A stretch of DNA of 64,000 nucleotides, taken from Patescibacteria group bacterium. GTDB lineage: Bacteria; Patescibacteriota; Patescibacteriia; UBA9934. The notes beneath the pieces were generated by a model. The model did not search any database and was not told the DNA's origin. It worked only from the letters and a program-made list of their open reading frames with translations. The translations under genes were made by a program, and so were the position numbers. Location: assembly GCA_041661425.1 (NCBI GenBank), contig JBAZUI010000003.1, forward strand, positions 10,446-74,445, given 5' to 3'. Positions 28 through 62,583 of this stretch are shown one piece after another (positions within the stretch are counted from its first letter, which is position 1; every line of letters begins with the position of its first letter).

Positions 28-786
28 ATGTCCAAATACTATACCCCTCAACGAAAGACAAAAATGTACACGCCCGGGGCAAAGAAGCCCTTTGCGCTTT
101 CGCGTTCGAAAATTGATTTATTTTTGGAATGTCCTCGTTGTTTTTATCTGGATCGTCGCCTGGGCATTGGGCGTCCAAAAGGATTTCCATTTAATTTAAA
201 CAAAGCCGTTGACGTGCTCTTGAAAAAAGAATTTGATATTCATCGTGCGAAAGGCGAGGCGCATCCACTCATCAAAAAATACGGCGTTGACGCGATTCCC
301 GTCGCGCATGCGGAGCTTGATATTTGGCGTGAGAATTTCAAAGGGGTACGATTTTTGCATGAGGAAACGAATTTTGAATTAACGGGCGCGATCGATGACC
401 TGTGGCAGAACTCGAGTGGCGAATACATCGTGGTTGATTATAAAGCAACGTCCAAGGATCAGAAGATCGAAACACTCGGTGAAGATCGGCAAATTGGGTA
501 TAAGCGACAGATGGAATTTTATCAGTGGCTTTTACGTCGTCGTGGGCTCACGGTTTCCGACACCGGTTATTTTGTGTACTGCAATGGTCGAAAGGATGCA
601 AAAGCGTTTGATGGCAAGCTGGAATTTGATATTGCACTCATTGCCTATCGGGGCGATGATTCATGGGTGGAAAAGACGATCAAAAAAGCGCATACCTGTT
701 TGAATGGGAAAAAGATTCCCGTTGCCAGCAAGGATTGTGATTATTGTCGTTATATTGAGGCGGTGAATGGAAAGACGAATCGGTAG
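28..786 (+). CDS. PD-(D/E)XK nuclease, RecB/Cas4-like, with four-Cys cluster (orphan; no CRISPR nearby)
   Basis: N-terminal LECPRCFYLDRR motif (Cas4-like CPR-x-y-L) with CxxC. D...EYIVVDYK reads as nuclease motifs II/III. C-terminal DCDYCRY CxxC. Confidence 0.5.
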   Translation: MSKYYTPQRKTKMYTPGAKKPFALSRSKIDLFLECPRCFYLDRRLGIGRPKGFPFNLNKAVDVLLKKEFDIHRAKGEAHPLIKKYGVDAIPVAHAELDIWRENFKGVRFLHEETNFELTGAIDDLWQNSSGEYIVVDYKATSKDQKIETLGEDRQIGYKRQMEFYQWLLRRRGLTVSDTGYFVYCNGRKDAKAFDGKLEFDIALIAYRGDDSWVEKTIKKAHTCLNGKKIPVASKDCDYCRYIEAVNGKTNR

Positions 787-826
787 GGGCGACCGGCCGC
801 CTGCCTGCCGGTAGGCAAGGTCGCCC
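786..826. terminator. GC-rich palindrome GGGGCGACCGG...GGTCGCCC after the nuclease gene
   Basis: Perfect 8-bp outer stem seen in sequence. Same motif family recurs at 48.85 kb and 54.30 kb. Confidence 0.4.
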
Positions 827-905
827 TTGCGAGAATGAATTTTTCGTCCACAGTCGCATAGCGAATCGCTATGCGATTTTGATATAATGATTGTCATAAC
901 GGTTA

Positions 906-36787: not shown

Positions 36788-37234
36788 ATGAAAAAGGGGT
36801 TTACGCTTATAGAAATTCTTCTCGTGGTGGCGGCTATTGCGATTCTTGCCGGGATTGTGATCATTGCCATTAACCCCGCCAAACAATTAGCCGAAGTTCG
36901 AAACGCACAGCGTTGGGAAAATGTGAATACGATTTTGAATGGCGTCTATCAGTATTCCATCGATCACAATGGTGATCTCCCAACCACGATCAATGAAAAT
37001 TCAAGTTGTGCGGGGTATGCCGTGAATGAAATTTGTTATGGGTCTTCGTGTGCAAGTTATACGAATTTAAGTGCACTCACAACAGAAGAAGTCTATTTAG
37101 TTGGTATGCCACGCGATCCCTCAATTTCTTCAGGAAGTGGGTCTGGATATTTTATTCACAAAACCGAATATGATCGTGTTGAGGTCTGCGCTCCCGAAGC
37201 TGAACTAGAAGAGACGATTAGTGTAAAACGATAA
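36788..37234 (+). CDS. pilA: Type IV major pilin (PilA-like) copy 2
   Basis: MKKGFTLIEILLVVAAIAILAGIVIIAINPAKQLAEVRNAQR is near-identical to copy 1 over the first ~45 aa. C-terminal half diverges. Confidence 0.8.
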   Translation: MKKGFTLIEILLVVAAIAILAGIVIIAINPAKQLAEVRNAQRWENVNTILNGVYQYSIDHNGDLPTTINENSSCAGYAVNEICYGSSCASYTNLSALTTEEVYLVGMPRDPSISSGSGSGYFIHKTEYDRVEVCAPEAELEETISVKR

Positions 37235-37283
37235 GGGGATGTCGAGGCAGGTCTGTGACCTGCCTTTGTGATTTTCGTTATTT

Positions 37284-38197: not shown

Positions 38198-38214
38198 CGA
38201 AGAACCACCCCTTA

Positions 38215-38270
38215 CCCCTCCTTTGAAAGGAGGGGTAATTACGTAGGGACAGGTCGCGACCTGTCCCTAC
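38215..38270. repeat. Two palindromic units: CCCCTCCTTTGAAAGGAGGGG and GTAGGGACAGGTCGCGACCTGTCCCTAC
   Basis: Both belong to families that recur elsewhere in the window (48.77 kb, 54.38 kb; 37.25, 42.03, 49.05, 52.3 kb). Confidence 0.7.
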
Positions 38271-38429
38271 AGAATGATGCAGGTGGATAAAATTTCAATA
38301 GGTAGAATGACAGATAGAACGAAGAAAGCCGAGACAGGGGTTAGGGGCTGGAACCCCCTTAAAAACAATTCGAGTCCCGTTTCGCGAGACGAGTAGTCTC
38401 AAGCGATACGGGACTCAGAGAGGTGTGCG

Positions 38430-40082: not shown

Positions 40083-40255
40083 TCTCCCCTCCCGGGGTTT
40101 GCGGTTTTTGTGGTTGGATAACAGAAAGTTTGAAAAGAACAGAGGGGAACATTAACAAAAAAAATGCGTCTTGTCAACGCATGATCTTAAACGAAAATGC
40201 CCCCCGACCGAAGTTAGACTTCAATCGGGGAGCAGGGGCCTGACAGACGGGAGCG

Positions 40256-41782: not shown

Positions 41783-42070
41783 CGGAAACTCCTTGCCCTC
41801 TTGGAGGGCAATGGGGGTGGTGGATATTTGCCAGGGGGTCAGCTTCTCGGTCGACCCCTGGCGGGTTCTTCAGATGTAAATGAAGGAGATCGCCCCTTTT
41901 TGAGGTTTTAAGGCCTCTTAAAGGGACGATTCCAGGCTTGAACTGGACCGGGTATTATAGCAGAAAAACAGCGATTTGTCAATGATTCAAATGAAAAAAT
42001 CGCCTTATCTTGGCGAAATTCATGGGCAGGTCACAGACCTGCCCGTACGCAAATCAATCAAAACAAAAAG

Positions 42071-42098
42071 GGCGGCCACCTGGGGCCGCCCCTACCGA
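42071..42098 (-). terminator. Rho-independent terminator of rplT
   Basis: GGCGGCC-acctgg-GGCCGCC followed by a T-run on the minus strand. Confidence 0.7.
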
Positions 42099-42697: not shown

Positions 42698-42808
42698 TTT
42701 TTTGGATCAAGGATAAACTCGATGAGATGTTGGCGCGTGGGGAAGCAAGCCTCCGAGACGTACACATTGTACGAAGAGGAGGTTGCGGGGCCCCACAAAC
42801 CAACAGAT
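42698..42808 (-). ncRNA. Copy A of a ~106-nt structured intergenic element (infC-rpmI spacer)
   Basis: Reverse complement aligns with copies at 53364 and 62466. Ends are conserved and internal helices carry compensatory changes. Confidence 0.55.
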
Positions 42809-42827
42809 CGCGAGTTTATCATTGATC

Positions 42828-43379: not shown

Positions 43380-43637
43380 GGGTGATGGATATTTGTTTCA
43401 AAATTTGTGGCAAATTTTCGTCATTCTGAGGCCAACCTGTCCTTCGAAGCCCAAAGGGCGAAGGAGGAAGGCCGAATGAATCTCTTGAGCGATTATTAAG
43501 AGATCCTTCGCTTTGCTCAGGATGACGGCGGGGGACTGAGTCCTCCTACGCTCCTCGGCATCGCTTCGGAGCTTCGGAGGACAACCTTCGCTTCAGCTGG
43601 CAGGGTGGCCTGCCAACCGTAGCTTCAGCGAAGCTGA
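43380..43637 (-). promoter_or_regulatory. Highly structured leader upstream of infC-rpmI-rplT (candidate L20-type autoregulatory leader and/or repeat-derived)
   Basis: CGTCATTCTGAGG pairs with CTCAGGATGACGG ~130 nt away with a G-U. Several nested hairpins. Shares the CGTCATTGCGAG motif family. Confidence 0.35.
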
Positions 43638-44039: not shown

Positions 44040-44060
44040 ACGTTAGGACTTCCGCCTTTA

Positions 44061-44175
44061 GCGCATAGCTTTGTCAAAAACCTCCGCACTTCGTCACCGT
44101 ACGCATTGGTACGGCTCCTCGTTGCTCGGTTTTTTCCTCGCTCTGCATCTAAAGGCGAAAGTCCTAAAAGTTCTC
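44061..44175 (+). repeat. Copy 1 of a ~115-bp conserved intergenic element (second copy at 46938-47043)
   Basis: Shared ends GCGCATARCTTTGTCRAAA ... CTCGYTCTGCATCYAAA..CTAAAAGTTCT. Internal hairpin covaries (CCGTAC/GTACGG vs CGGAC/GTCCG). Confidence 0.5.
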
Positions 44176-46916: not shown

Positions 46917-46937
46917 TATGCAGGACTTTTGTCTTTG

Positions 46938-47043
46938 GCGCATAACTTTGTCGAAACCTTCGTTTTTCGTTCAACGGACATCTGGGTCCGTCTCACGAAA
47001 AGCCTTTGTTTCTCCTCGTTCTGCATCCAAATCTAAAAGTTCT
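46938..47043 (+). repeat. Copy 2 of the ~115-bp conserved intergenic element
   Basis: See copy 1 at 44061-44175. Confidence 0.5.
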
Positions 47044-47059
47044 TTTTCACATAAGTATG

Positions 47060-48759: not shown

Positions 48760-49140
48760 TCGCGACCACCCCTCACCCCTCCTTTGAAAGGAGGGGTCTC
48801 CTTCTGGAGCCTCCCCCTTAAGCAAGGGGGAGTAAAGAGGGGGTTATGAAAACCGTGGGGCGACCGGCCGGTCGCCCATAGTAAGCGAAGTGTATGGGGG
48901 TGTAAATTCGATTTTCTTGACACCGGTTTTCTCCTCTGTTAGGTTTGAACCATGAAGCCCCTTGGAAGGGCTCGGTGGAACGGTCGTGACGCCTCCTCCT
49001 CGTCGCGATTCGTCCCCGCCGAGCCTTTCGAGGGGGTTTTTGTTTTTGGGCAGGTCGCAGACCCGCCCGTACGGCGTGATGTAGGGGCATGGCATGCCAT
49101 GCCCATACGCCAAAGCGCGTTTTTTTGCTCATTTTACCCA
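48760..49140. repeat. BIME-like cluster of GC-rich palindromic units
   Basis: CCCCTCCTTTGAAAGGAGGGG, CTCCCCCTTAAGCAAGGGGGAG, GGGCGACCGGCCGGTCGCCC, GGGCAGGTCGCAGACCCGCCC, GGCATGGCATGCCATGCC in series. Confidence 0.6.
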
Positions 49141-49415
49141 TAAAACCCACCAAACCCCTTGACAATCAGCTGGTTTTTTGATATTGTTACGGGTCCGTAA
49201 AAACGGGCGTGACCTTTAAAAAGGCTGGTTTCTGGCCTTCTCTGATTCGGTGTCCGACAACCTACCCTCCTAGGATGTTGTTGACGCCGGGTCATAGAAG
49301 GCTCAGAAGTCAGAAAATGAGCCCCCGCACCCCCGTGCGGGGGGCATAAGCCACAAAACCCCGCCCGTCCTCCCCAGAAAGGAGGCTCCGGGCAAAAACC
49401 AAAAGGAGGGTCACC

Positions 49416-50396
49416 ATGACCCTGTCCCTCGCTCTGTCCCTCGCCCTGTCCCTCGCCACCCCGGCCCTGGCCCAGGACCTCCCGTCCTGCCCGGCTGGCC
49501 ACCACCTCAAGCCCGCCGACGCCGAGTGTGTCGACGATGTGGTGGCGGCCCTGCCGCCGACGGCCGAGTCGGCACAGGCCGCGGCCGATGAGGCCAAGGC
49601 CCTGATCGCGGACCTGCAGCAGCAGGTCCGCGCCTACCGCATCACCCAGGCCACGGCCAACGCCCAGGCCAAGGCCGACCTCGAGCTCGTGATTGCGGGA
49701 CTCAAGTCCCGCATCGAAGAGCTTCAGGCCTTGGTGGCCCGGGGCAAGGCCGACCAGGCCGTGGTCGACGCCCGTCAGGATGACGTCACGGCCCAGGCCC
49801 AGGTCACGGCCAACGAGGCCAAGGCCGACGCGGCCAAGGCCAACAAGGCCGTGGGCGACGCCCGGTACGACATCGCCCAGCTCGGCATCCAGGCCGAGCT
49901 GCAGGAGGTGCGCCTCGGCCACGAAGAGGACGAGGAGGGCAGGATCGGCGCCCACGCGGGCGTCTGGGTCCAGTCCCACGGCGCAATCCCCGGGGTCGGC
50001 GACGAGCTGTCCGCGGGCGTGGTGGGAGGTCTCTCCTGGCGCGAGCGGACCTCTGCCGGCGAGACCTACGCCGACATCGGAGCCGTGCTCGGCTCCGACA
50101 ACATCCTCGGCGGTGCCGTGGAGCTTGGGCGGGTGTGGAACCTGCCCGTGGTCCCGATCGCCATCGGCATCGTGGCCGGGGCCGACGTCGTGGGCTACGA
50201 AGCCTACGATAGCAAGACCTCGTCCTCGTCACTGGGGATCGACGGCCTGGCCGGACCCGCCGTCACCGTCGATCTGGGCGGGGCGGAAGTCGATGTAGTA
50301 CCGGCGTTTTACGTCGGTACCATCCACAACCGGTTTGCCGTCCCGGACAACACGCTCCGGTCCGGCTTCGTCGGCTCGGTGAAGGTGCGGTTCTAG
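49416..50396 (+). CDS. High-GC island 2 secreted protein: signal peptide, Ala-rich coiled coil, beta-rich C-terminus ending in Phe (OMP-like)
   Basis: MTLSLALSLALSLATPALAQ signal. GC3 >85%. Terminal ...VKVRF. Confidence 0.55.
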   Translation: MTLSLALSLALSLATPALAQDLPSCPAGHHLKPADAECVDDVVAALPPTAESAQAAADEAKALIADLQQQVRAYRITQATANAQAKADLELVIAGLKSRIEELQALVARGKADQAVVDARQDDVTAQAQVTANEAKADAAKANKAVGDARYDIAQLGIQAELQEVRLGHEEDEEGRIGAHAGVWVQSHGAIPGVGDELSAGVVGGLSWRERTSAGETYADIGAVLGSDNILGGAVELGRVWNLPVVPIAIGIVAGADVVGYEAYDSKTSSSSLGIDGLAGPAVTVDLGGAEVDVVPAFYVGTIHNRFAVPDNTLRSGFVGSVKVRF

Positions 50397-50810
50397 AGCG
50401 CAACGCTCGAACCGCCGCCCTCACCAACTACGTGTTCGCGGGGATTAATCAAGTGCACTGCACAAGATTCTTCCCCGCGGATGCAACTTATCAAGAATTG
50501 TTACGGATGCTCTTCTAGTGTGAAGAACAGCCATAAGACTTCTTGAAAATTGAGGAAGTCAAGAACATTCAAATCGAAAATACAACGAACATCTGCGATG
50601 GTGCCGTCCACATGAGTGCTGATTAGCACTGAAGGATTGCCGACTAGACTAAATGGTTCCAAAGAAATTTTTGGCACTCATGAGTCGTCGCCATGGCAGA
50701 TGTTCGAAAGCTGCCTCCGCCCGCCCTTGGGGCGGCGGCAAAGTTTCCGCTCGCGACCCATCCCGGGTCTACGAGCAAGTGTCTAAACCTAGAAGTCCTT
50801 GGAGGACACC

Positions 50811-52016
50811 ATGATCCGATTCGCCCTGCTCCTCGCCGCCCTCGCCCTCTCCGCCTGCACCGGGGACCTTTTTGTCCCCGACAAGGCCGACGACGACGGC
50901 GACACCGACACCCCCACCGACGTCGACACCGACGGCGACGGGTACGACACCGACGTCGACTGCAACGACCACTCGGCCAGCGTCCACCCGGGCGCCACCG
51001 AGCTCTGCAACAACGTCGACGATGACTGCGACGGGTACGTCGACGAGGGCCTGGACTGCAACGACGCCGTCGACGCCGCCGGCGATGGCTATGCCTACGC
51101 CGACGACTGCGACGACTCCGACGTTTCCGTCCACCCCGGCGCCACCGAGACCTGCAACGGCATCGACGACGACTGCGACGACGACGTCGACGAAGGCATC
51201 GATTGCGATGCCGACGACGATGACGACGGCTACAGCGCCGCCGACGACTGCGACGACACCGACGCCTCCGTCCACCCCGGCGCGACCGAGACCTGCAACG
51301 AGGTCGACGACGACTGCGACAACGAGGTCGACGAGGACGTGACCGATACCTACTACCTCGACGACGACGGCGACGAGTACGGCGACCCCGACCACTCGGT
51401 CGAGGCCTGCGACGCGCCCGCCGGCTACGTCGACAACGACGACGACTGCGACGATGACGACGACGACGTCTACCCCGCCGCCGACGAGGACTGCAACGAC
51501 GGCGTCGACAACGACTGCGACGGCGACGAGGACGACGACGATGATGACTGCGATAGCGGCATCGTCTGCGATCCGGACGACAGCGACGACGTGGCCGACG
51601 GCTGCGTCGAAGTCTGCTGGTACCCCGACCCGGGGTCCGGCGCTGGCAACGACGTCGACGCCACGGTCTACGACCTGTGGTTCGGCGTCGAGACCATCGC
51701 CTCCGACGACACCATCGACCTCGTCGTGGTCGACTCCGGTTCGGCGTCGGGCATCTGCGTCGGCCTCTATGAGGACGACCTGGACGAGCTCCGCGTGAAC
51801 GTGGGGTTCGAGTTCGACGACGACGACTGGTCGGTCGACGGGGCATGGGACTCCGATTCCGATGATTTGGACGAGTGGTGGGCCTGCTCCACCTACTCGA
51901 CCGAAAACGGCGGGTTCTGGGGCCAGTTCACGGTCGACGGCGACACTGCCGACGACGTGGACGCCATCGACAACCCGGAGGAATCCGGGTACGACTGCCA
52001 GCTGAACAGCTGGTAG
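50811..52016 (+). CDS. High-GC island 2 lipoprotein with tandem MopE-type putative metal-binding repeats
   Basis: RBS GGAGGA precedes the ATG. Lipobox LALSAC. Four or more repeats DCDD.D.SVHPGATE.CNG.DDDCDG.VDEG. Asp-rich. Confidence 0.65.
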   Translation: MIRFALLLAALALSACTGDLFVPDKADDDGDTDTPTDVDTDGDGYDTDVDCNDHSASVHPGATELCNNVDDDCDGYVDEGLDCNDAVDAAGDGYAYADDCDDSDVSVHPGATETCNGIDDDCDDDVDEGIDCDADDDDDGYSAADDCDDTDASVHPGATETCNEVDDDCDNEVDEDVTDTYYLDDDGDEYGDPDHSVEACDAPAGYVDNDDDCDDDDDDVYPAADEDCNDGVDNDCDGDEDDDDDDCDSGIVCDPDDSDDVADGCVEVCWYPDPGSGAGNDVDATVYDLWFGVETIASDDTIDLVVVDSGSASGICVGLYEDDLDELRVNVGFEFDDDDWSVDGAWDSDSDDLDEWWACSTYSTENGGFWGQFTVDGDTADDVDAIDNPEESGYDCQLNSW

Positions 52017-52191
52017 AGTCCCACCCTCCGCCCTCTCTCTCAACTCCCGGCCGAGAACTACATGCGTCTGCGTGTGGTGCTCGTGTCCGGGGGTTTTTCG
52101 TTTTCACGTCATTGCAGGAGGCCTCATGGCCGACGCCTGCCCGTCCGAAGCTCCGATTATCCATCGTAGCTTTAGCGAAGACGGAAGGAGC

Positions 52192-52287
52192 GAAGGCGGG
52201 AAGCAATCTATCCGAACAGTTTGCTTCGTCCTCCCCTTGGTCGTCCTTCCGCCTTCGTCTTCTTCGGCGGACAGGCGCAATGACGGC
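52192..52287. repeat. Left arm of ~100-bp inverted repeat flanking rpsB-tsf
   Basis: Reverse complement matches 54104-54229 apart from a 33-bp insertion in the right arm. Contains GAAGCAATCT...AGATTGCTTC hairpin and GCGCAATGACGGC end. Confidence 0.7.
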
Positions 52288-52292
52288 AGAAG

Positions 52293-52354
52293 GGCGGGTC
52301 ACAGACCCGCCCGTACGTAAATCAATTCTGTAGGGGCAGGTCTGTGACCTGCCC
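52293..52354. repeat. Two head-to-head REP-like palindromes GGGC(G/A)GGTCACAGACC(C/T)GCCC
   Basis: Separated by GTACGTAAATCAATTCTGTA. Same family at 37246, 38243, 42024, 49048, 54261. Confidence 0.7.
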
Positions 52355-52510
52355 TTTTGGCGAATCCTTGACGAATCCCCATGTTTCCCCTACAATTCCC
52401 ACCAATCGCAACTGTCCTTCTAATCAATCAGGTTTGGGCGATATCCACTGGTTTCCTCCCAATTTATTGGGTCCAATGGATTCAAACCGCAGTCTAAAAG
52501 GAAAATTTCT

Positions 52511-53350
52511 ATGACCCACATCCCATCCATGCTCGATATGCTCAAGGCCGGCGTCCACTTTGGACATCGCACCAGCCGTTGGCATCCTAAAATGAAGTCC
52601 TATATTTTCGGCGCTCGCGGAGGCGTTCACGTCATTGACATCGAACAGACCCGCGCTCGTTTGGAAAAAATTCTGACGGATATTGAAAAGATGATTGCCG
52701 ACGGTGGCGTGATCATGTTCATTGGCACCAAAAAGCAAGTGCAGGATTTGGTCGCAAAGTACGCCAATGAATGCAATATGCCTTATGTCAACACGCGTTG
52801 GCTTGGAGGAACATTCACGAATTTTCCGGAAATCCATAAGCTTATTAAAAAGTATTTGGACCTCAAGGATAAACGTGTAAAAGGGGAACTCAAAAAATAT
52901 ACCAAGCTCGAACAATTGCAGTTTGATCGCAAAATTGAAGATCTTGATGGCCAAATCGGCGGAATCTCCATTCTCAAAGATTTACCAGATGCGGTATTCG
53001 TGCTTGATATGCGTCACGATAAAACAGCAGTGACCGAAGCGCGTTTGCGTGGCATCAAGGTGATTGGAATCTGCGACACCAATGTCAATCCGGAAATGGC
53101 CGATGAAGTTATTCCAGCCAATGATGATTCTGTTGCTTCTGTCACGATGATCACAAAATTGATTACCGAAGCCGTTCACGGCGGAAAGAGCAATGCCAAA
53201 AAAGCGATTGAACGTCGCGAGGCAGAACGCAAGGCCCGTGAAGAAGAATTGGCCGTGACCGCGGCTTCAAAAGCAACGGTCGAAGTGCTCGATGATGAAA
53301 TCAAAGAGAAACTCGCAAACGAAAAAATCGCTCAATTAAAAACGAAATAA
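52511..53350 (+). CDS. rpsB: 30S ribosomal protein S2
   Basis: LKAGVHFGHRTSRWHPKM... Confidence 0.95.
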   Translation: MTHIPSMLDMLKAGVHFGHRTSRWHPKMKSYIFGARGGVHVIDIEQTRARLEKILTDIEKMIADGGVIMFIGTKKQVQDLVAKYANECNMPYVNTRWLGGTFTNFPEIHKLIKKYLDLKDKRVKGELKKYTKLEQLQFDRKIEDLDGQIGGISILKDLPDAVFVLDMRHDKTAVTEARLRGIKVIGICDTNVNPEMADEVIPANDDSVASVTMITKLITEAVHGGKSNAKKAIERREAERKAREEELAVTAASKATVEVLDDEIKEKLANEKIAQLKTK

Positions 53351-53363
53351 TTAGAGACCTTGC

Positions 53364-53469
53364 AAAACTCGCGATCTGTTGGCTTGCGGGGCCCTGCCAT
53401 CTCCTCAACGTACACTCTGGTACGTCTCGGAGACTGGCTGTCCCGCGCACCAACATCTCATCGAGTTTT
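53364..53469 (+). ncRNA. Copy B of the ~106-nt structured intergenic element (rpsB-tsf spacer)
   Basis: AAACTCGCGATCTGTTGG...CCAACATCTCATCGAGTTT outer helix plus three inner helices. Confidence 0.55.
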
Positions 53470-53499
53470 GCGAAGGTCCAAGTATAATTCTATTTTTCT

Positions 53500-54099
53500 A
53501 TGGACATAAAAGCAGGGGATGTCCTTCAATTGCGACAAAAAACCGGCGTCGGCATGATGGAGGCAAAAAAAGCTCTTACCGAGGCCGAGGGTAATATCGA
53601 AAAAGCCATTGAATGTCTCAGAAAATCCGGAGCCGCAAAAGCTCAAAAACGTGCAGAACGCACAACCGCGCAAGGACGTGTGGAATGTTATTCCCATGCC
53701 GGCGGAAAAATTGGTGTGCTCGTGGAAGTGCAATGCGAAACGGATTTTGTGGCACTCAATGATCAATTCATTGAATTTTGTCATGATCTTGCTTTGCACG
53801 TTGCCGCTTCCAGTCCACTTTATGTAAACCGTGAAGATGTGCCGGAAGAGATGATCGCAAAGGAAAAGGAAATCATTCGTGAGCAAATTGCTGCTGAGGG
53901 TGGCAATAAGCCGGCAGAAATTGTTGAAAAGATTGTGGAAGGAAAGATCGCCAAGTATTTGCAAGATATTGTGTTGATGGACCAGACATTTATCAAAGAT
54001 GAGGATGTGACCATTCGAGCCTTGCTCGAATCGAAGATTCTCTCCATCGGGGAAAATATTCGCATCGCCCGCATTGCGCGATTACAAATTGGGGAATAG
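53500..54099 (+). CDS. tsf: Elongation factor Ts
   Basis: LRQKTGVGMMEAKKALTEAEGNIEKAIE UBA-like N-terminus. Confidence 0.9.
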   Translation: MDIKAGDVLQLRQKTGVGMMEAKKALTEAEGNIEKAIECLRKSGAAKAQKRAERTTAQGRVECYSHAGGKIGVLVEVQCETDFVALNDQFIEFCHDLALHVAASSPLYVNREDVPEEMIAKEKEIIREQIAAEGGNKPAEIVEKIVEGKIAKYLQDIVLMDQTFIKDEDVTIRALLESKILSIGENIRIARIARLQIGE

Positions 54100-54103
54100 C
54101 GGC

Positions 54104-54229
54104 GCCGTCATTGCGCCTGTCCGCCGAAGAAGACGAAGGCGGAAGGACGACCAACCTATTTTCCCTGCCGTCATTGCGAGGACGACCAAAGGGAGGACGA
54201 AGCAATCTGTTCGAATAGATTGCTTCGTC
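54104..54229. repeat. Right arm of inverted repeat flanking rpsB-tsf
   Basis: See 52192-52287. Carries two CGTCATTGCG(C/A) units. Confidence 0.7.
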
Positions 54230-54289
54230 GGCCATGAGGCCTTCTCGCAATGACGTGAGAGGGCGGGTCAAAAGACCTGCTCTTTTCGA

Positions 54290-54410
54290 TTTGTCATAGG
54301 GGCGACCGTTTGTTCATGCTATTCATAACCCCCTCTTTACTCCCCCTTGTTTAAGGGGGAGGCTCATAGAGTTCCCCCTCCTTTCAAAGGAGGGGGAAGG
54401 GGTGGTTCCC
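54290..54410. repeat. BIME-like palindrome cluster, inverted relative to 48760-49140
   Basis: CTCCCCCTTGTTTAAGGGGGAG and CCCCCTCCTTTCAAAGGAGGGGG. Confidence 0.6.
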
Positions 54411-54451
54411 GAATGCGATATGATATAATCATCTATATCGTTCGGAGGAAT

Positions 54452-55453
54452 ATGGTACGTATTGCCATCAATGGGTTTGGCCGGATTGGACGCCAGGCGT
54501 TCAAGGCGGGTTTTGGGCGTGAAGACGTCCAATTTGTCGCGATCAATGATTTGGGTGCGCCGGAAATCCTCGCCCATCTTTTGAAATACGATACGCAGTA
54601 CGGCGTTTGGGATGTGCCCATTGAGGCCAAGAAAAATCTCCTCAAGGTTGATGGAAAAAAGATTCAAGTCTTTTCGGAAAAAGATCCGGCAAATCTCCCG
54701 TGGAAAAAATTGAACGTCGATATTGTGATTGAATCAACCGGCGTTTTTCTCACAGAAGATGATTGTTTGCCGCATCTTGTGGCCGGCGCAAAACGTGTGA
54801 TCATCTCTGCGCCAGCCAAGGGCGGGCATGTGCCGACTTATCTCGTTGGCGTCAATACCGAAAAGCTCGAAAATGATTTTTCACGCATCATTAATTGCGC
54901 CTCGTGCACCACGAATTGTGTGGCCCCGATGCTTGCCGTTCTCGATGAAGCGTTTGGGATTAAGAAAGCCATGATGACCACTATCCACAGCTATACCTCA
55001 AATCAAAATCTCGTGGACGGTCCGCACAAGGATCCTCGCCGGGCTCGTGCCGCTGCCATGAATATGATTCCAACGAGCACGGGAGCGTCGGAAGCGACCG
55101 CGGATATTTTTCCAAATCTTACGGATCGTTTTGACGGTCTTTCCATTCGTATTCCGCTTCCGGTTGTTTCGTTAACGGATCTTACGGTTGTTCTTAAGAA
55201 ACGAACGACTGTCGAGAAGGTCAATACCGTTTTTAAAAAAGCCTCTCGTACTCATCGTTGGGAGGGAATTCTCGGCGCAACCGAGGAACCTTTGGTTTCC
55301 TCGGATTATATCGGCGATGCGCATTCGGCTGTGGTCGATTTGCCGCTCACGCGTTTGGTGGATGGTGATCTTCTCAAGGTGACGGCGTGGTACGATAATG
55401 AATGGGGATATGCAAATCGTCTGATTGACTTGGCGGTTCTTGCTTCCAACTAG
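54452..55453 (+). CDS. gap: Glyceraldehyde-3-phosphate dehydrogenase
   Basis: RBS GGAGG then ATG at 54452. INGFGRIGR, ASCTTNCVAP active-site Cys. Confidence 0.9.
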   Translation: MVRIAINGFGRIGRQAFKAGFGREDVQFVAINDLGAPEILAHLLKYDTQYGVWDVPIEAKKNLLKVDGKKIQVFSEKDPANLPWKKLNVDIVIESTGVFLTEDDCLPHLVAGAKRVIISAPAKGGHVPTYLVGVNTEKLENDFSRIINCASCTTNCVAPMLAVLDEAFGIKKAMMTTIHSYTSNQNLVDGPHKDPRRARAAAMNMIPTSTGASEATADIFPNLTDRFDGLSIRIPLPVVSLTDLTVVLKKRTTVEKVNTVFKKASRTHRWEGILGATEEPLVSSDYIGDAHSAVVDLPLTRLVDGDLLKVTAWYDNEWGYANRLIDLAVLASN

Positions 55454-55456
55454 CGC

Positions 55457-56617
55457 ATGAATCTATCGCACCTCCCACTTTCTTCCATTAAAAAAGGCAC
55501 CCGCATTTTAATGCGGGTTGATTTTAATGTCCCGCTCAAAAATGGGAAAGTCCCGGAAGCTTCTCTTCCTCGATTGCGCGCCGTCGCCCCGGAGATTGTT
55601 GAATATACAAAGCGTGGCGCTCGCGTGATTCTTGCAACGCATCTTGGTCGACCTGATGGCCATCGCAAAACATCACTTTCAACGCATGCGCTTGTACGGC
55701 CACTCGGCACGTGTGTGGGGCAGGGGATCGAAACCGCAAGTGATATTGCGGGATCGTCCGCAAGAAAGATGGTTGAGCATTTACAGCCAGGCCGGATTGT
55801 GATGCTTGAGAATTTGCGTTTTGATGAACGCGAGGAAAAAAATAAACGCTCCTTTGCAAAAGAACTGGCGCAACTTGGGGATGTGTACGTCAACGATGCC
55901 TTTAGTGTGAGCCATCGGCCTCATGCATCTGTTTCGGCAATCACAAAGTATCTTCCGAGCTTTGCCGGGGATTTACTCACAAAGGAAGTGACGGAACTTT
56001 CAAAACCCCTCAAAGAACCGTTTGTGCTTGTGCTCGGTGGCGTGAAACTTGAAACAAAATTAGGACTCTTACTCGCTCTCGGGTCAAAGGCCGATGCGAT
56101 TCTCATGGGTGGGGGAGCTGCGGTTGTTCTTGAATCCATTCGATCAGATCGTCCGTCGCTTGCCACACATCTTTCGCCATCTTCGCATGAGATTCGCATT
56201 GGAAAGAAGATTCTTCGACGATTTCAAGATCGGTTGATACTCCCAAGCGATGCGATTCTCAAATCAACAGGAAAAAGCGAGTCTATTCACCAATTAGGGA
56301 TTGATGATTTGATGATTGATATTGGACCCAAAACGCAAAAGGCATTTGAGAAGATTATGGAAGATGCAAAAACAATCGTGTGGAATGGACCCATGGGGAT
56401 GATTGAAGATTCGCGCGCTTGTGGAGGAACAACCGCGGTATTGCGCTCCATGGTGCATTCGGAAGCACGAACCATTGCCGGCGGTGGAGATACACTCGGA
56501 TTTCTGGATGGAACAACCCTCACAAAAAAACTCTCTTTTGTTTCAACCGGCGGAGGAGCGATGCTTGCTTTTTTGGCAGGCGAACCCATGCCGGGTCTTA
56601 AACCGTTATTTGTATGA
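55457..56617 (+). CDS. pgk: Phosphoglycerate kinase
   Basis: RVDFNVPLKNGKV N-terminal motif. Confidence 0.9.
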   Translation: MNLSHLPLSSIKKGTRILMRVDFNVPLKNGKVPEASLPRLRAVAPEIVEYTKRGARVILATHLGRPDGHRKTSLSTHALVRPLGTCVGQGIETASDIAGSSARKMVEHLQPGRIVMLENLRFDEREEKNKRSFAKELAQLGDVYVNDAFSVSHRPHASVSAITKYLPSFAGDLLTKEVTELSKPLKEPFVLVLGGVKLETKLGLLLALGSKADAILMGGGAAVVLESIRSDRPSLATHLSPSSHEIRIGKKILRRFQDRLILPSDAILKSTGKSESIHQLGIDDLMIDIGPKTQKAFEKIMEDAKTIVWNGPMGMIEDSRACGGTTAVLRSMVHSEARTIAGGGDTLGFLDGTTLTKKLSFVSTGGGAMLAFLAGEPMPGLKPLFV

Positions 56618-57882
56618 AAGATCGAATCGCAAGCATTCATGCGCAAGAAATTTTGGACTCGCGTGGAAATCCAACGGTTTATGTGACCGTGGAATTGCGT
56701 GGAGGCGTGCATGGCCATGCATCGGTTCCCTCTGGTGCTTCGACTGGAATTCATGAAGCACTTGAGCTTCGCGATGGCGACTCAAAGCGCTATCGGGGTA
56801 AAGGCGTACAAAAAGCTGTCCATCACGTGAATACGAAAATCGCGAAAGCGCTTGAGGGGAAAATCATTTTTGATCTCCCGGGCATTGATACGACAATGCG
56901 TTTACTCGATGGCACTGCTAATAAACATATCCTTGGCGCCAATGCCATTCTTGGCGTTTCCATGGCTTGCGCTCATGCGGGGGCCCGGCGCGCAAAACGT
57001 CCGCTTTATGCGTATCTTCGGGCCATCTATGGCATTGGATATAAAAAGTACACGCTCCCAACTCCGTTCTTGAATGTGTTTAATGGCGGAGCACATGCGG
57101 ATACTAATCTCGACATGCAGGAATTTATTATTATCCCGCATGCCATGAAAACATTTTCGAAAAAGTTGCAAGCCGGATCGGAGATCTATCATGCGCTTGG
57201 CGATATCCTAAAAAAAGATCATCTTGATACAGATAAGGGCGATGAAGGAGGGTATGCGCCTCATGTGGGAAAAACAGAATCTGCGCTTGAATATCTATCG
57301 AAAGCAACAAAGAAAGCTGGATATCGACTCGGAAAAGATATTGGATTTGGCATTGATATTGCGGCCAGTGAGTTTTTTGATCACAAGACTGAAAAATATA
57401 TTCTCAAAACCGATCATCGACGTTTGAGCGCCAAGGATATGATGGAATTGCTTGCAAGTTGGCAGAAGAAGTATCCATTGATGTCGATTGAAGATCCGCT
57501 CGATCAGGATGCCTGGGAAGATTGGGCTATCATCACAAAACAATTAGGAAAGAAGATGCTGATTGTGGGAGATGATTTTTTTGTGACAAATCCAGAACGC
57601 ATTCAAGAAGGAATTACAAAAAAATGCGCCAATGCGGTACTTGTGAAAATGAATCAAATCGGAACGCTCTCGGAAACAATGGAAGCGATTGATTTAGCGC
57701 AAAAACATGGATACAAAGTTGTGATCTCGCATCGATCTGGAGAAACATCAGATACCACGATTGCGGATTTGGCCGTTGCTGTGAATGCTGAATATCTTAA
57801 ATCCGGCGCCCCTTCACGATCAGAGCGTTTGGCAAAATACAATCGAGTTCTCGAAATCGAAGAAGAGTTACTTGGCCTCTAG
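56614..57882 (+). CDS. eno: Enolase
   Basis: IHAQEILDSRGNPTV... Overlaps the pgk stop. Confidence 0.95.
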   Translation: MKDRIASIHAQEILDSRGNPTVYVTVELRGGVHGHASVPSGASTGIHEALELRDGDSKRYRGKGVQKAVHHVNTKIAKALEGKIIFDLPGIDTTMRLLDGTANKHILGANAILGVSMACAHAGARRAKRPLYAYLRAIYGIGYKKYTLPTPFLNVFNGGAHADTNLDMQEFIIIPHAMKTFSKKLQAGSEIYHALGDILKKDHLDTDKGDEGGYAPHVGKTESALEYLSKATKKAGYRLGKDIGFGIDIAASEFFDHKTEKYILKTDHRRLSAKDMMELLASWQKKYPLMSIEDPLDQDAWEDWAIITKQLGKKMLIVGDDFFVTNPERIQEGITKKCANAVLVKMNQIGTLSETMEAIDLAQKHGYKVVISHRSGETSDTTIADLAVAVNAEYLKSGAPSRSERLAKYNRVLEIEEELLGL

Positions 57883-59145
57883 AAGTTCGTGATCATAATG
57901 CCAACCGCTCACGCGCTCGGCCATAAAGGTACCGAGGGCATTGGCGCGTTGCCAAATATGTCCGCCATAACGCTCTTGTAGACGATCGAGGGCTTGAATG
58001 GTTGCCAGTATTTTTTGGTCTTTCTTGAAAAGGGAAGTGGGGATTGGGATGTGCTCAAGTCCGGAAATTGAAACACCAAGAAGACGCACGGAACAATGTG
58101 GATCACGAATATCCTCAAGAATTTGCCAAGCGCATTTATAGATATCAAGGCCATTCCAGAGTGGGATATGAAGACGACGAATCGTCGAAACGCCGGTAAA
58201 ATCCGCATAACGCGCAAAAACAGCAATGGTCCCGCCAACGGCTTTGGCACGCCGAAGACGCCAGGAAACCTTATCGCAAAGGGCGAGAAGATTGGTTTGT
58301 AATTCAATTTCCGTGTCAAGATTTTCCGGGAAGGTATAGGAGTGACCAATTGATTTTTCCGGTTGCGGTTCTGCAAGAATCGCATTCGATCCTTTGCCTC
58401 GTGCGGCATCGTAGAGGAAATTTCCATACGATTTGAAATGCATGAGAAGGATCGGTTTTGGTGTGGCGCGCAAATCCGCAATAGATTCAATACTCAGATT
58501 TTTAAGGCGTTTTGCAATGCGATGACCAATGCCGCAAATATCCTCGAGTTTCCTTGTGAGGACGAAATCCTCGACTTCGTGTGGCTGAACAACAGTGAGT
58601 CCATTTGGTTTTACCGATTCGCCTGCGAGTTTTGCAATGAGTTTATTGGGCCCGATCCCAATCGAAGCCGTGCAATATTCCCCGCAGATTTTTTTGATAT
58701 CGTCACGGATCACTTGAGCGAGCATAATCGCTCCAAAATAATCTTTTGCTGAGACGGTGATATCAGCAAAAGCTTCATCGGCACTAAATTGTTCTACCGC
58801 ATCGGTATGCTCGCGAAGAATGGCGAGAAAACGTTTTGTGATTTCCGCGTATTTGCGAGGATCGCCTGGAATAATTTGAAGATCGGGAACTATTTGTTTT
58901 GCCTCAAATGTTGACATGGCGGTTTTGACGCCAAGTTTTTTTGCTTCGCGTGAGGCCGTGGTGATGACGGATCGTTCAAACCGAAATTGCGAAACATCAT
59001 GAGCGCGACCGTCCATGGAAGCACGACCTTTGCCCGCGATGCCAATCGCCTTGCCACGCAAAAATGGATTCGCTTGTTGTTCAACAGAGGCAAAGAAAGA
59101 ATTGAAATCAACGTGAAGAATAATTGGCATATTTTCTGACGTCAT
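57868..59145 (-). CDS. dinB: Y-family DNA polymerase IV
   Basis: ILHVDFNSFFASVEQ catalytic motif. Confidence 0.85.
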   Translation of the reverse strand: MTSENMPIILHVDFNSFFASVEQQANPFLRGKAIGIAGKGRASMDGRAHDVSQFRFERSVITTASREAKKLGVKTAMSTFEAKQIVPDLQIIPGDPRKYAEITKRFLAILREHTDAVEQFSADEAFADITVSAKDYFGAIMLAQVIRDDIKKICGEYCTASIGIGPNKLIAKLAGESVKPNGLTVVQPHEVEDFVLTRKLEDICGIGHRIAKRLKNLSIESIADLRATPKPILLMHFKSYGNFLYDAARGKGSNAILAEPQPEKSIGHSYTFPENLDTEIELQTNLLALCDKVSWRLRRAKAVGGTIAVFARYADFTGVSTIRRLHIPLWNGLDIYKCAWQILEDIRDPHCSVRLLGVSISGLEHIPIPTSLFKKDQKILATIQALDRLQERYGGHIWQRANALGTFMAERVSGWHYDHELLEAK

Positions 59146-59172
59146 TGCGAGCCTAAAAGGCGAAGCAATCTA

Positions 59173-60063
59173 TTGATGAATTATTTTTATTCACAAGGGA
59201 CTCTTGGAATCGATGCTAAATTGTGTAATATGAGTTCATACACTCCCCATAATTTTTTTATGCTTACCAAAAATGATATAAAATTATTTCGTGGGGTGAT
59301 TCGCGAAGAGTTTCAAGCTGATACATTCAAGGATGGTGTGCGTGAGGTTCTTCATGATGAAATCCGTGGAGAATTTCAGGGTGATGCGTTTAAAGATGGC
59401 GTGCGAGAGATTCTCCATAACGAGATTGGCGAGGAATTTCAGGGTGAAACATTTAAGGACAGTATCCGTGAGGTTGTGAATCATGAAATTTGCGAAGAAT
59501 TTCAAGGTGAGACGTTCAAAAATAGCATCCGGGACGTCATCGACCATGAGATTCGTGGAGAGCTTCAGGGCGAAGCATTCAAGAACAGTATGCGGGAGGT
59601 TGTGAATAACGAGCTCCGTGGAGAACTCGGAGGTGAGACCTTTAAGGATAGTATTCGTGAGGCTGTGAATCATGAGATTCGTGGAGAGCTTCAGGGCGAA
59701 GCATTCAAGAACAGTATGCGGGGGGTTGTGAATAACGAGATTCACGAGGAGCTTCAGGCTGATTCGTTTAAGAATAGTGTGCGCGAAATTGTTAACGATG
59801 AGGTTGGTGAAGTTCTTGAGAATATCGTTGTCCCACAATTTGATGGCATCTATCGTGAAATGGACGAAATAAAGAGCAAAATAAGTGTTTTAGAGGACAC
59901 GGTGGTCACAAAAGACTATTTGGATGAAAGACTTATAAATTTTAAGGAAGAATTGAACCTCCCGGCGGTATGGGTCGCGAAGCAAGTCGAGCGACTTTCA
60001 CATATGCTCTATAAAGGAGGAATTTTAACTGCTGAACAGGTCGTAGAGATCAGGACGGAATAA
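59173..60063 (+). CDS. Hypothetical protein made of ten tandem 20-residue repeats (consensus IRGELQGEAFKNSMREVVNHE)
   Basis: 60-bp DNA periodicity from 59290 to 59830. Two 68-bp stretches are near-identical. Start codon choice is uncertain. Confidence 0.5.
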   Translation: MMNYFYSQGTLGIDAKLCNMSSYTPHNFFMLTKNDIKLFRGVIREEFQADTFKDGVREVLHDEIRGEFQGDAFKDGVREILHNEIGEEFQGETFKDSIREVVNHEICEEFQGETFKNSIRDVIDHEIRGELQGEAFKNSMREVVNNELRGELGGETFKDSIREAVNHEIRGELQGEAFKNSMRGVVNNEIHEELQADSFKNSVREIVNDEVGEVLENIVVPQFDGIYREMDEIKSKISVLEDTVVTKDYLDERLINFKEELNLPAVWVAKQVERLSHMLYKGGILTAEQVVEIRTE

Positions 60064-62457: not shown

Positions 62458-62465
62458 ACTGCTCC

Positions 62466-62583
62466 AAAACTCGCGATCTGTTGGCTTGCGGGGCCCTGCC
62501 ATCTCCTCATCGTACCTATCCGGTACGTCTCGGAGACTGGCTGTCCCGCGCACCAACATCTCATCGAGTTTTGAAGCAGTCCA
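62466..62583 (+). ncRNA. Copy C of the ~106-nt structured intergenic element
   Basis: Identical to copy B except the apical hairpin (CGTACC-tatcc-GGTACG vs ACGTAC-actctg-GTACGT). Confidence 0.55.

Follow-up and report, generated by a model that had tools for sequence, protein, structure and literature searches.

Interleaved palindromic repeat families, some in inverted copies, fill gene-free spacers around rpsB-tsf in a Patescibacteria genome

Introduction

GTAG-tagged REPs, REPINs and BIMEs are known in Proteobacteria (Nunvar 2010, PMC2817692; Bertels & Rainey 2011, PMC3116915; Di Nocera 2013, PMC3733652). Bacterial MITEs that form long hairpins include Correia/NEMIS, RPE and ERIC (reviewed in PMC3184786 and PMC10969869). 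Selfish genes have also recruited the Vsr/DUF559 nuclease fold, as in the Vsr-like homing endonucleases of the I-Bth0305I family (PMC3239194), and Vsr, DUF559 and the I-Bth0305I-type homing endonuclease form one PD-(D/E)XK clade (PMC3424549).

Here, we describe hairpin clusters in a 64-kb stretch of DNA (the window) from a small Patescibacteria (CPR) genome of 47% GC. The clusters, first flagged in a sequence-only reading, are real: they are stacks of several small palindromic repeat families in a few gene-free gaps, in which at least five families are interleaved, namely GTAG-tagged REPs, a tagged C/G hairpin (units A and B) and the elements D, E and F. With good confidence, we regard them as small palindromic repeats, non-coding and non-autonomous, that have piled up in the few permissive spacers of a gene-dense chromosome. 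The 64 kb is the part of the genome that was visible, and copy counts are within-window.

Results

A double-hairpin element and its inverted copy

Of the 30 perfect hairpins whose stems reach 9 bp or more, 18 fall in intergenic DNA, which makes up ~12% of the window; the repeat hairpins are stable on folding (z -2.3 to -9.4). Two copies of a double-hairpin element, A-B, and one solo unit A were located.

48765..48850, + strand: A-B element, copy 1, 10 nt past the stop of the upstream membrane-protein gene
54322..54406, - strand: A-B element, copy 2, inverted, in the tsf-gap spacer, ending 45 nt before the gap start codon (54452)
38204..38235, + strand: solo unit A (tag ACCACCCC, TTA, hairpin), just past tRNA-Asp and its terminator

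The element consists of the tag ACCACCCC, hairpin A (CCCCTCC-TTTGAAA-GGAGGGG), a 14-nt spacer, hairpin B (CTCCCCCTT-AAGC-AAGGGGGAG) and a degenerate reverse tag, GGGGGTT. As single-stranded DNA, copy 1 adopts the shape of a closed three-way junction (-27.8 kcal/mol, z -4.8), and copy 2 folds at -27.2 kcal/mol (z -5.2). Window-versus-self blastn aligned 48765-48850 with 54406-54322 at 88% identity over 86 nt (E 2.5e-16). Both 86-nt copies adjoin a REP, and a MAFFT alignment extends the inverted similarity through half of that REP, to 48881 and 54296. The two clusters thus share colinear, multi-unit inverted similarity rather than short palindromes alone, as the sequence-only reading had proposed. 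Its further statement that the 54.3-kb cluster is the 48.8-kb cluster reversed holds for the first ~120 nt; the rest of 48.76-49.14 kb is without a 54.3-kb counterpart and includes a conserved, non-repeated promoter and hairpin-RNA gene (48917-49047).

The individual units named in that reading were all found in place, with CCCCTCCTTTGAAAGGAGGGG at 38215, 48776 and 54375 (0-1 mismatch; shuffles expect 0), CTCCCCCTTnnnnAAGGGGGAG at 48811 and 54340, GGGCGACCGGCCGGTCGCCC at 48858-48877 and GGGCATGGCATGCCATGCCC at 49085-49104. The unit it placed at 38.2 kb is the solo unit A, 97% identical to 54408-54375. The mirror-like appearance of the two clusters would arise because a single block, made up of A-B and the REP next to it, was duplicated into another spacer with its orientation reversed.

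GTAG-tagged REPs and their arrangement

Around and beyond these elements lie REPs in several configurations.

38243..38270, unstranded: REP, perfect 28-nt palindrome GTAG-GGACAGGTC-GC-GACCTGTCC-CTAC, 7 nt past the solo unit A
48855..48881, + strand: REP GT-GGGGCGACCGGCCGGTCGCCC-ATAG, adjoining the A-B element
54296..54308, + strand: half REP ATAG-GGGCGACCG, equivalent of 48868-48881, other arm lost
54261..54280, + strand: degenerate REP GGGCGGGTC-AAAA-GACCTGC, after the D element; direct repeat D17 with 52276-52310
49048..49108, unstranded: REP doublet with facing tags, GGGCAGGTCGCAGACCCGCCC-GTAC / 8 nt / GTAG-GGGCATGGCATGCCATGCCC-ATAC
52292..52354, unstranded: REPIN-like REP doublet, GGGCGGGTCACAGACCCGCCC-GTAC / 13 nt / GTAG-GGGCAGGTCTGTGACCTGCCC, just 5' of the rpsB promoter; inverted repeat I5
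42024..42095 (42024-42048, 42070-42095), - strand: tandemly oriented pair of REPs, at the right-hand border of the first high-GC block, ahead of rplT
37245..37265, unstranded: REP-like hairpin AGGCAGGTCTGTGACCTGCCT, between two pilus genes
783..828, + strand: long-loop REP variant GTAG-GGGCGACCGGCCG...GGTCGCCC

Like their proteobacterial counterparts, these palindromes are extragenic, GC-rich and 21-28 nt long, and one end carries an unpaired GTAG (or the degenerate forms GTAC/ATAG). They occur as singletons, as inverted doublets with 8-13 nt between facing tags and as a tandem pair, and are grouped with other repeats into mosaics. The GTAG/GTAC tags and the doublet geometry fit the definitions in PMC3733652. 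The doublet at 52292-52354, like a REPIN, forms one long hairpin (-24.2 kcal/mol, z -7.9). The sequences that match the REPs at 49048-49108 are 52292-52316 and 42024-42048, rather than anything in the 54.3-kb cluster. A unit said to recur at 786-826 is the long-loop variant, which shares GTAGGGGCGACCGGCCG and the closing GGTCGCCC and nothing else.

The host differs, since here it is a member of the Patescibacteria, a phylum not named in the abstract and consulted sections of the 2013 survey (PMC3733652), and, unlike RAYT-linked REPs, these are accompanied by no RAYT gene seen within the 64 kb. Describing the clusters as a BIME-like mosaic of GC-rich hairpins is fair as regards the GTAG-tagged REPs and their two inverted doublets; however, the window clusters mix unrelated families, whereas E. 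coli BIMEs are regular alternations of REP types with conserved linkers, and no regular alternating REP arrays occur here.

Long-hairpin elements around rpsB-tsf

A second class of repeats resembles bacterial MITEs.

52105..52287, + strand: D element, composite long hairpin of the GTCATTGCG...CGCAATGAC type, between a MopE-like gene and the rpsB promoter; inverted repeats I2, I4 and I12
54104..54258, - strand: D element, inverted copy, starting 5 nt past the tsf stop
53363..53470, + strand: E element, 108-nt MITE-like long hairpin in the rpsB-tsf spacer, TIRs CAAAACTCG/CGAGTTTTG
62465..62573, + strand: E element, further copy, 95% (blastn)
42715..42817, - strand: E element, further copy, 85% (blastn)

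The inverted-repeat arms reported at 52.2 and 54.1 kb are these two D copies, and are larger than claimed: the alignment of 52105-52287 with 54258-54104 includes a 51-nt stretch at 100% identity and a 48-nt stretch at 94%, with two indels that correspond to a 65-nt insertion in the first copy and a 35-nt insertion in the second. The pair flanks rpsB-tsf. Both the 91-nt core hairpin of the 54104-54258 copy (-30.9 kcal/mol, z -8.4) and the E element at 53363-53470 (-30.4 kcal/mol, z -8.5) fold stably. D, E and F are 90-180 nt long and, like bacterial MITEs, carry terminal inverted repeats, fold over their whole length, occur in several copies, contain no ORF and are absent at orthologous sites in relatives; as with such MITEs, one element sits within an operon spacer (rpsB-tsf). 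They differ in that neither a target-site duplication nor a parent IS was found for D, E or F, and in that copies are nested in one another, with internal indels.

Gene order in relatives

We compared the window with three relative genomes, L003, L004 and L005, of which L003, a sister species, is the closest (RpsB 88% identical). The order rplT / infC / tmRNA / ... / high-GC genes / rpsB / tsf is colinear with L003, whose contig ends before the tsf-gap junction, and rpsB-tsf-gap-pgk is colinear with L004 and L005. High-GC blocks are found in all three relatives and the order high-GC gene-rpsB-tsf-gap recurs in L005; L004 has rpsB-tsf-gap, but with rplT directly upstream of rpsB.

The repeats behave differently. 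The A-B plus REP block is absent from the orthologous L003 spacer, where the upstream gene's stop leads straight to the conserved promoter; D upstream of rpsB is absent in L003 and L005; and E is absent from the L003 rpsB-tsf spacer (~20 nt). The tsf-gap spacer of the window measures 352 nt, 303 nt of them repeats, compared with ~100 nt in L004, which comprises a terminator and a promoter and no repeats. Judged by these absences, the repeats are lineage-specific insertions; the gene arrangement in the window is the ancestral, colinear one. Two D copies would have landed either side of rpsB-tsf, and the DNA between the arms would be ancestral chromosome, not cargo.

These comparisons bear on the proposal that 48.7-54.4 kb as a whole forms a composite mobile element, or a genomic island, with inverted repeats at its ends. 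The inverted-repeat frame and a block of 65% GC, against 47% for the genome, invite that reading, and a chromosomal segment between inverted repeats recalls Tn10-type composite transposons and Hin/Gin/fimS-type switches. Here, however, the arms are 86-180 nt long and contain no ORF, IS or transposase, no recombinase lies nearby, and what they frame is conserved housekeeping sequence that has kept its ancestral position. Among the 50 window ORFs scanned against Pfam (of 57 greedy ORF calls, ~50 were scanned), none was recognised as a transposase, a recombinase or a DUF559 gene. The cargo would include the essential rpsB-tsf along with the high-GC secreted-protein genes, L003 and L005 share the gene order and high-GC genes without these arms, and other places in the window also hold copies of the arms' repeat families. 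The synteny largely refutes a composite element, which we consider extremely improbable.

It is also quite unlikely that the inverted arms recombine in part of the population, with D flipping rpsB-tsf and A-B the whole 5.5-kb segment. The arms are long and similar enough (D, 51 nt at 100% within ~155 nt; A-B, 86 nt at 88%), and L003 frames the same segment with different, 100%-identical inverted pairs. Yet the window orientation is colinear with the three relatives, so no inversion has been fixed; a flip would have no obvious regulatory effect, because the rpsB promoter and leader fall within the arms; and a highly expressed operon would then run counter to the gene orientation and GC skew that prevail there. 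The perfect 51-nt D arms and the different perfect inverted pair of L003 could nonetheless reflect more than random accumulation.

Metagenome assemblies can mis-join at repeats, and GC jumps at 49.1 and 52.05 kb might suggest that sequences were chimerically joined or that repeats collapsed. Nevertheless, three Logan contigs from run SRR18595301, which the window may share, were assembled separately and match 48981-51176 (99.9%), 52258-53392 (100%) and 54104-59574 (100%), crossing from the REPs into the high-GC gene and through D-REP-A-B-gap. One of them (L166) carries the inverted A-B copy at 100% identity and the D copy at 54104-54258. The contigs stop at repeat copies, as expected for multi-copy DNA. 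Equal GC jumps and the gene order recur in the three other genomes, and an assembly artefact is hardly credible.

Placement of the repeats and possible roles

Some hairpins might instead be RNA or DNA signals selected in place, such as 3'-end stabilisers or terminators, operon insulators or SD/anti-SD decoys. Copies do occupy operon boundaries, following tRNA-Asp, the membrane-protein gene and tsf and preceding the rpsB promoter, and unit A has one arm that resembles an anti-SD sequence (CCTCCTTT) and one that resembles an SD sequence (AAAGGAGG). Additionally, two REPs are retained at orthologous L003 positions: the first REP of the 49048-49108 doublet (6372-6392) and a REP of the same family as the 52292-52354 doublet (9663-9683). 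On the other hand, none of the repeat hairpins is followed by a T-run or scored as an intrinsic terminator, copies occur in both orientations relative to transcription, and the relatives manage without these repeats at the same junctions. We consider selection in place, as opposed to selfish spread, unlikely, and such signals would be compatible with a selfish origin; the repeats may incidentally serve as transcript-end hairpins or insulators.

For the preferred pile-up of non-autonomous repeats, mobility is suggested by presence/absence and copy number, since no target-site duplications were recognisable at the repeat copies and no enzyme was identified. Copying would depend on enzymes that act in trans and recognise hairpins, with their genes elsewhere in the genome: a RAYT-type enzyme in the case of the REPs and possibly a DUF559 nuclease in that of A-B. 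Local gene conversion could be an alternative route.

Unit A-type hairpins elsewhere

At least 120 metagenome stretches, from contigs ranging over 33-67% GC, contain the unit A core, usually in the form of a tag ACC[A/T]CCCC, a variable hairpin and CCCCTCC..GGAGGGG. The conserved tag lies unpaired beside the hairpin, and the stem varies in sequence while pairing is kept. In other organisms, across several bacterial phyla, such structures bracket small DUF559 (Vsr-like endonuclease) ORFs, in 10 of the 10 examined, five of which were picked without regard to repeats. This bracketing resembles the arrangement of RAYT genes with their cognate REPs/REPINs, although the bracketed gene is DUF559, a putative nuclease with a Vsr-like PD-(D/E)XK fold, rather than an HUH Y1 transposase, and the tag is ACC[A/T]CCCC rather than GTAG. 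We found no description of the DUF559-hairpin arrangement in the searchable literature. The DUF559 mini-ORFs are free-standing (~115-135 aa) with hairpins on their flanks, and differ from the I-Bth0305I family, whose members are larger, have NUMOD/HTH DNA-binding domains and lie in introns or inteins of phage genes. Gene-less copies, the only kind present in the window, far outnumber gene-bracketing ones elsewhere, and are dispersed, often as inverted dimers.

Inverted repeat clusters frame the rpsB-tsf region

About 88% of the window is coding, with housekeeping and type IV pilus genes (ftsA/Z, pyk, pilB/C, rplT, infC, smpB, tmRNA, rpsB and tsf, together with gap, pgk, eno, dinB and metK). 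Its backbone of ~47% GC is interrupted by two blocks of 60–69% GC, at 38.3–41.9 kb and 49.1–52.05 kb. The closest species-representative genome is a MAG named 'Patescibacteria group bacterium' (L003, RpsB 88% identical), and the remoter relatives are other Patescibacteria/Parcubacteria-type MAGs.

A sequence-only reading had described mosaic clusters of GC-rich hairpins in opposite orientation at 48.76–49.14 and 54.29–54.41 kb, and all the units that it quoted are present, far above chance. Comparison of the window with itself by blastn, used as a dot-plot, yields an inverted colinear multi-unit match between 48765–48850 and 54406–54322 (86 nt, 88%, E 2.5e-16), corresponding to the two copies of the A-B double hairpin. 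Alignment carries this match into the adjoining REP, to 48881 and 54296, and the same blastn comparison shows the unit at 38.2 kb to be 97% identical over 33–34 nt to both A-B copies. Mirroring of the 48.76–49.14 kb cluster at 54.3 kb holds for its first ~120 nt and not for the remainder, which is a conserved promoter and hairpin-RNA unit followed by a REP doublet with relatives at 42.0 and 52.3 kb. The inverted repeat around rpsB-tsf is also real and, at ~155–180 nt, larger than its 51-nt and 48-nt cores; the two arms represent a single composite element, D, in inverted orientation, and are told apart by indels of 65 nt and 35 nt. Logan contigs, which are separate assemblies from run SRR18595301, match 48981–51176, 52258–53392 and 54104–59574 at 99.9–100%, starting or ending in repeat copies. 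Since these separately assembled contigs reproduce the sequence, the structure is not an artefact of one assembly.

Palindromic repeats of the window (window coordinates)
38204: tagged unit A, tag-hairpin spacer TTA
48765–48850 (+): A-B element, unit A spacer TCA
54322–54406 (-): A-B element, unit A at 54406 (-), spacer TTC
52105–52287 and 54104–54258: D, inverted copies flanking rpsB-tsf
44044–44160 and 46930–47045: F, long-hairpin family (in L003, 9869–9991)
783, 37245, 38243, 42024, 42070, 48855, 49048, 49081, 52292, 52330: REPs
54296: half REP copy
54261: degenerate REP
783, 38243, 49081, 52330: GTAG tags; 42092, 38267: the same as CTAC
42045, 49069, 52313: GTAC tags
48855/48878: GTGG/ATAG tags, also at 54296

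The A-B element consists of ACCACCCC, TCA, a first hairpin (CCCCTCC TTTGAAA GGAGGGG), 14 nt, a second hairpin (CTCCCCCTT AAGC AAGGGGGAG), TAAAGA and GGGGGTT, and folds as a closed three-way junction (z about -5). The window copies follow the general layout of the tagged C/G hairpins, in which the tag ACC[A/T]CCCC stands 2–7 nt (or one variable hairpin) ahead of CCCCTCC-loop-GGAGGGG; their own spacers are the 3-nt ones listed above. A role of the GC hairpins as intrinsic terminators was rejected, as none scores as one.

REPs and long-hairpin elements

The window REPs are GC-rich palindromes of 21–28 nt, one end of which carries GTAG or a degenerate form of it (GTAC/ATAG). Their stems of 9–14 bp and loops of 0–6 nt (REPs 37245, 38243, 42024, 42070, 48858, 49048, 49085, 52292 and 52334) agree with the dimensions of REPs (palindromes of 20–40 bp, GC-rich stems of 6–13 bp, short loops), as does the unpaired GTAG or degenerate GYAG/GTRG tag at one end. 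Allowing one mismatch, GTAGGGGCRNNY is matched 17 times in the window against 6.8 expected. All REP copies in the window are intergenic. Two inverted doublets, arranged tail-tail with tags facing (49048–49108 and 52292–52354), show the extragenic inverted dimers (head-head or tail-tail, spacers of 1–100 bp) that REPs often form, and the second folds into one long hairpin (z -7.9); the pair at 42024–42095 is head-tail. REPs typically number more than 100 copies genome-wide, and ~11 are seen within these 64 kb. Y1_Tnp, the domain of RAYT enzymes, is absent among the 50 window ORFs scanned. Across 166 fetched loci, the REP subfamily GGGCRGGTCnnnGACCYGCCC is confined to this lineage and L003, where its copies sit at orthologous positions. 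These features agree with how GTAG REPs, and dimers of them, are defined in the literature (PMC3733652).

The label BIME-like fits as far as REPs and inverted doublets are concerned and fails on regular REP alternation. Strict E. coli-type BIMEs have two REP types alternating regularly in opposite orientation with conserved linkers, whereas the window clusters are heterogeneous mosaics: A-B with a REP, a REP doublet, D with a REP doublet, and D with a degenerate REP, a half REP and A-B.

The long-hairpin repeats D, E and F have the properties of MITEs, being shorter than 500 bp, free of ORFs, bounded by terminal inverted repeats and present in multiple copies. D occurs twice, has the ends CGTCATTGCG/CGCAATGACG and forms a long GTCATTGCG...CGCAATGAC-type hairpin (z -8.4). 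E, a hairpin of 108 nt bounded by CAAAACTCG/CGAGTTTTG, is present three times, and one copy occupies the rpsB-tsf spacer. Like MITEs, they vary in presence at orthologous sites: the spacers of L003 and of two further relatives, L004 and L005, are without the window's elements, and L003 carries others in their place. The sequences on either side of the A-B, D and E copies showed no consistent target-site duplication.

The F copy of L003 separates the rpsB leader from the rpsB start codon. Another long hairpin, GTCATTCTGAGG...CTCAGGATGAC, D-like in style, separates infC from the tmRNA gene (window 43420–43526).

The framed segment is ordinary chromosome

The segment at 48.7–54.4 kb, with its high-GC genes and rpsB-tsf enclosed by inverted repeats, had been thought to look like a composite element or a recombination hotspot. 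The first of these proposals is rejected: L003 is colinear, high-GC genes precede rpsB in L005 too, the 50 ORFs scanned include no mobility gene and the arms are ORF-free. The shared order in L003 runs rplT-rpmI, infC, tmRNA, smpB ... membrane protein, promoter/hairpin RNA, high-GC genes, rpsB, tsf. Immediately upstream of rpsB, L005 carries high-GC genes of the MopE-like kind, and in L004 a high-GC block separates tRNA-Asp from rplT, as the first block of the window does. Because high-GC genes occupy the same loci in these three genomes, they are long-standing residents of the clade and no recent cargo. A Pfam scan of 50 window ORFs found no transposase, integrase, invertase or recombinase; the flanking and internal ORFs gave S2, EF-Ts, GAPDH, a PDZ protease, MopE-like repeats or no match.

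The repeats themselves are what differs between the genomes. In L003, the upstream stop codon leads directly to the conserved promoter, with A-B and its REP absent; D is absent before rpsB, and rpsB and tsf are only ~20 nt apart. Ahead of rpsB, L005 shows a terminator, a promoter and nothing more. The tsf-gap spacer of L004, at ~100 nt, holds a terminator and promoter, and that of the window is 352 nt, of which repeats make up 303 nt. The simplest reading is the accumulation of non-autonomous repeats in a few tolerant spacers: several such families would pile up where insertion is tolerated and, in two cases, would have been copied in inverted orientation. The window feature is an ordinary though dense REP/MITE accumulation in an unusual host, and the framed 'island', being ordinary chromosome with repeat-colonised spacers, does not belong in a tally of mobile elements.

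As for the hotspot, recombination between the inverted arms would be physically plausible from their sequence, because the D arms include 51 nt that are 100% identical and the A-B arms agree at 88% over 86 nt. The arrangement in the window is the ancestral one. Exact-protein look-ups gave a single Logan contig, ending at or in the repeats, for each of three proteins (RpsB, GAPDH and the 326-aa protein), and no record for Tsf, the MopE-like protein or the membrane protein upstream. The metagenome matches listed for unit A included no contigs of the same species, the unit itself being the sole similarity.

L003 behaves likewise with repeat families other than those of the window, and brackets the same segment with an unrelated inverted pair of its own, 100% identical (6494–6538/11600–11556 and 6667–6713/11550–11504), the left copy of which (6494–6713) is split by a nested 128-nt hairpin element; the L003 contig end also falls in repeats of this kind. 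We regard this pair as the result of few permissive sites and local copying, and it could mean more. In L005, 110 N at 11289–11398 lie exactly over the tsf-gap spacer; they could mark a masked stretch or a scaffold gap left where repeats were not resolved.

The high-GC blocks (60–72% GC; window 38300–41900 and 49416–52016) encode secreted proteins or lipoproteins, one with MopE-type Cys/Asp-rich 'putative metal-binding' repeats (PF11617, E 3e-31). Blocks at the same loci in relatives (L003 7000–9500, L004 7000–9000, L005 7000–10000) stand in backbones of 42–52% GC, and the contrast is maintained across species at only 61–88% RpsB identity.

Unit A is widespread and at some loci adjoins DUF559 genes

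An exact search with CCCCTCCTTTSAAAGGAGGGG matched at least 120 metagenome stretches and had no match in the IMG/VR viral contigs. Among the matches listed, the contigs span 33–67% GC and many different metagenome datasets, are otherwise unlike the window, and carry ACC[A/T]CCCC within 45 nt of the hairpin in 85 of 126 occurrences. The gap between tag and hairpin is either 2–7 nt, as in the window, or an intervening segment of 12–50 nt. These segments vary in sequence between contigs yet nearly always fold: folded one by one, 45 of 57 distinct spacers had z < -1 (mean z -2.6). Since the variable hairpin cannot be aligned, RNAalifold on the tagged units gave no structure beyond the invariant core. 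Many metagenome units are inverted dimers with tags outward, resembling A-B. In 20 metagenome loci carrying unit A, Rfam identified tRNAs only and left the motif uncovered.

Among the 123 ORFs nearest to metagenome units, the commonest Pfam family is DUF559 (PF04480, Vsr-like PD-(D/E)XK), with five ORFs, and tblastn raises the count to 7 of 120 loci among the matches listed.

Loci with DUF559
Metagenome loci: L079, L086, L105, L115, L117, L144, L152
Genome loci: L156, L159, L163, L164, L165

All five metagenome-locus DUF559 ORFs that were read have C/G-rich hairpins within 150 nt, usually with GGGG[A/T]GGT upstream and with ACC[A/T]CCCC and a hairpin at or just past the stop. Reciprocally, five of 1175 DUF559 homologues were picked regardless of repeats, from Doudnabacteria and Kerfeldbacteria (Patescibacteria), Nostoc, Chloroflexi and Thermodesulfovibrionales. 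Hairpins adjoin the ORF in 5/5, on both sides in four and upstream only in Thermodesulfovibrionales, and at four of the five loci they are the only C/G hairpins within 2–3.4 kb. Overall, hairpins like those of unit A adjoin 10/10 DUF559 ORFs read (L086 and L152 left out), from lineages that include two Patescibacteria, Nostoc, Chloroflexi, Nitrospinae and Thermodesulfovibrionales. The ORFs are ~115–135 aa long in the layout hairpin..GGGG[A/T]GGT - ORF - ACC[A/T]CCCC..hairpin, and many of the proteins terminate in ...HHP, ...NHP, ...HLP or ...TPP, the translated tag.

Tags point outward in gene-less dimers and inward around DUF559 ORFs. These opposite directions place the ORF between elements, not within a deletion-derived MITE. 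A RAYT gene is likewise placed between REPINs. The Vsr/DUF559 clade includes a homing endonuclease family (PMC3424549). In the searchable literature, neither the tagged hairpin nor an association of DUF559 with repeats was found described.

We tentatively suggest, as a possible if somewhat doubtful reading, that units A and B are widespread undescribed repeats (the tag ACC[A/T]CCCC, an optional variable hairpin and a near-invariant CCCCTCC..GGAGGGG) made or spread by the DUF559 nucleases that they bracket. If so, this would be a second RAYT-REP-like partnership, a non-HUH one, and would account for the role of many orphan 'DUF559 / endonuclease domain-containing' mini-genes and for how proline/glycine-rich pseudo-ORFs across environmental genomes arose. 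A causal link would give a large orphan protein family a testable function, and REP-like elements a new enzyme class. The DUF559 link, which ties one repeat family to mini-genes of five lineages or more, is the one lead worth following.

Five DUF559 proteins compared by tblastn with the window and L003–L035 gave nothing significant. The A and A-B copies of the window are orphan and gene-less, since the window is without a DUF559 gene. As regards the window, these findings chiefly clarify what the framed 'island' is. Beyond that, a Patescibacteria genome that is reduced and gene-dense carries at least five palindromic repeat families, GTAG-type REPs included, and such repeats interrupt assemblies of these genomes and create spurious ORFs.

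Conserved non-coding units and coding repeats

At gathering thresholds, Rfam identified only tRNA-Asp and tmRNA in the whole window; permissive E-values at 48.6–49.5 kb added only implausible sub-threshold matches, mostly to eukaryotic microRNA and sno/snRNA families. Within the 48.76–49.14 kb cluster, a non-coding stretch (48917–49047; L003 6240–6371) is 85% conserved, above its neighbouring genes, and comprises TTGACA-17 nt-TAGGTT, an extended hairpin of ~85 nt (34 pairs, -54 kcal/mol, two-sequence consensus) and a U-run. It had no match in Rfam and could be a small RNA gene. The first high-GC gene is preceded by a promoter that is also conserved (TTGACA-17 nt-TATTGT) and by a leader of ~230 nt (49159–49415; L003 6772–7020). 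The leader, with 76% identity over 49131–49309 and only sub-threshold Rfam matches, is a possible cis-regulatory RNA.

Direct repeats also occur in coding regions: three tandem units of ~65 nt (59438–59739) in the ORF at 59173–60063, a 44-nt repeat common to two adjoining prepilin-type genes (36470–36964), and repeats of 30–41 nt (6543–6953) in a 3179-aa ORF.
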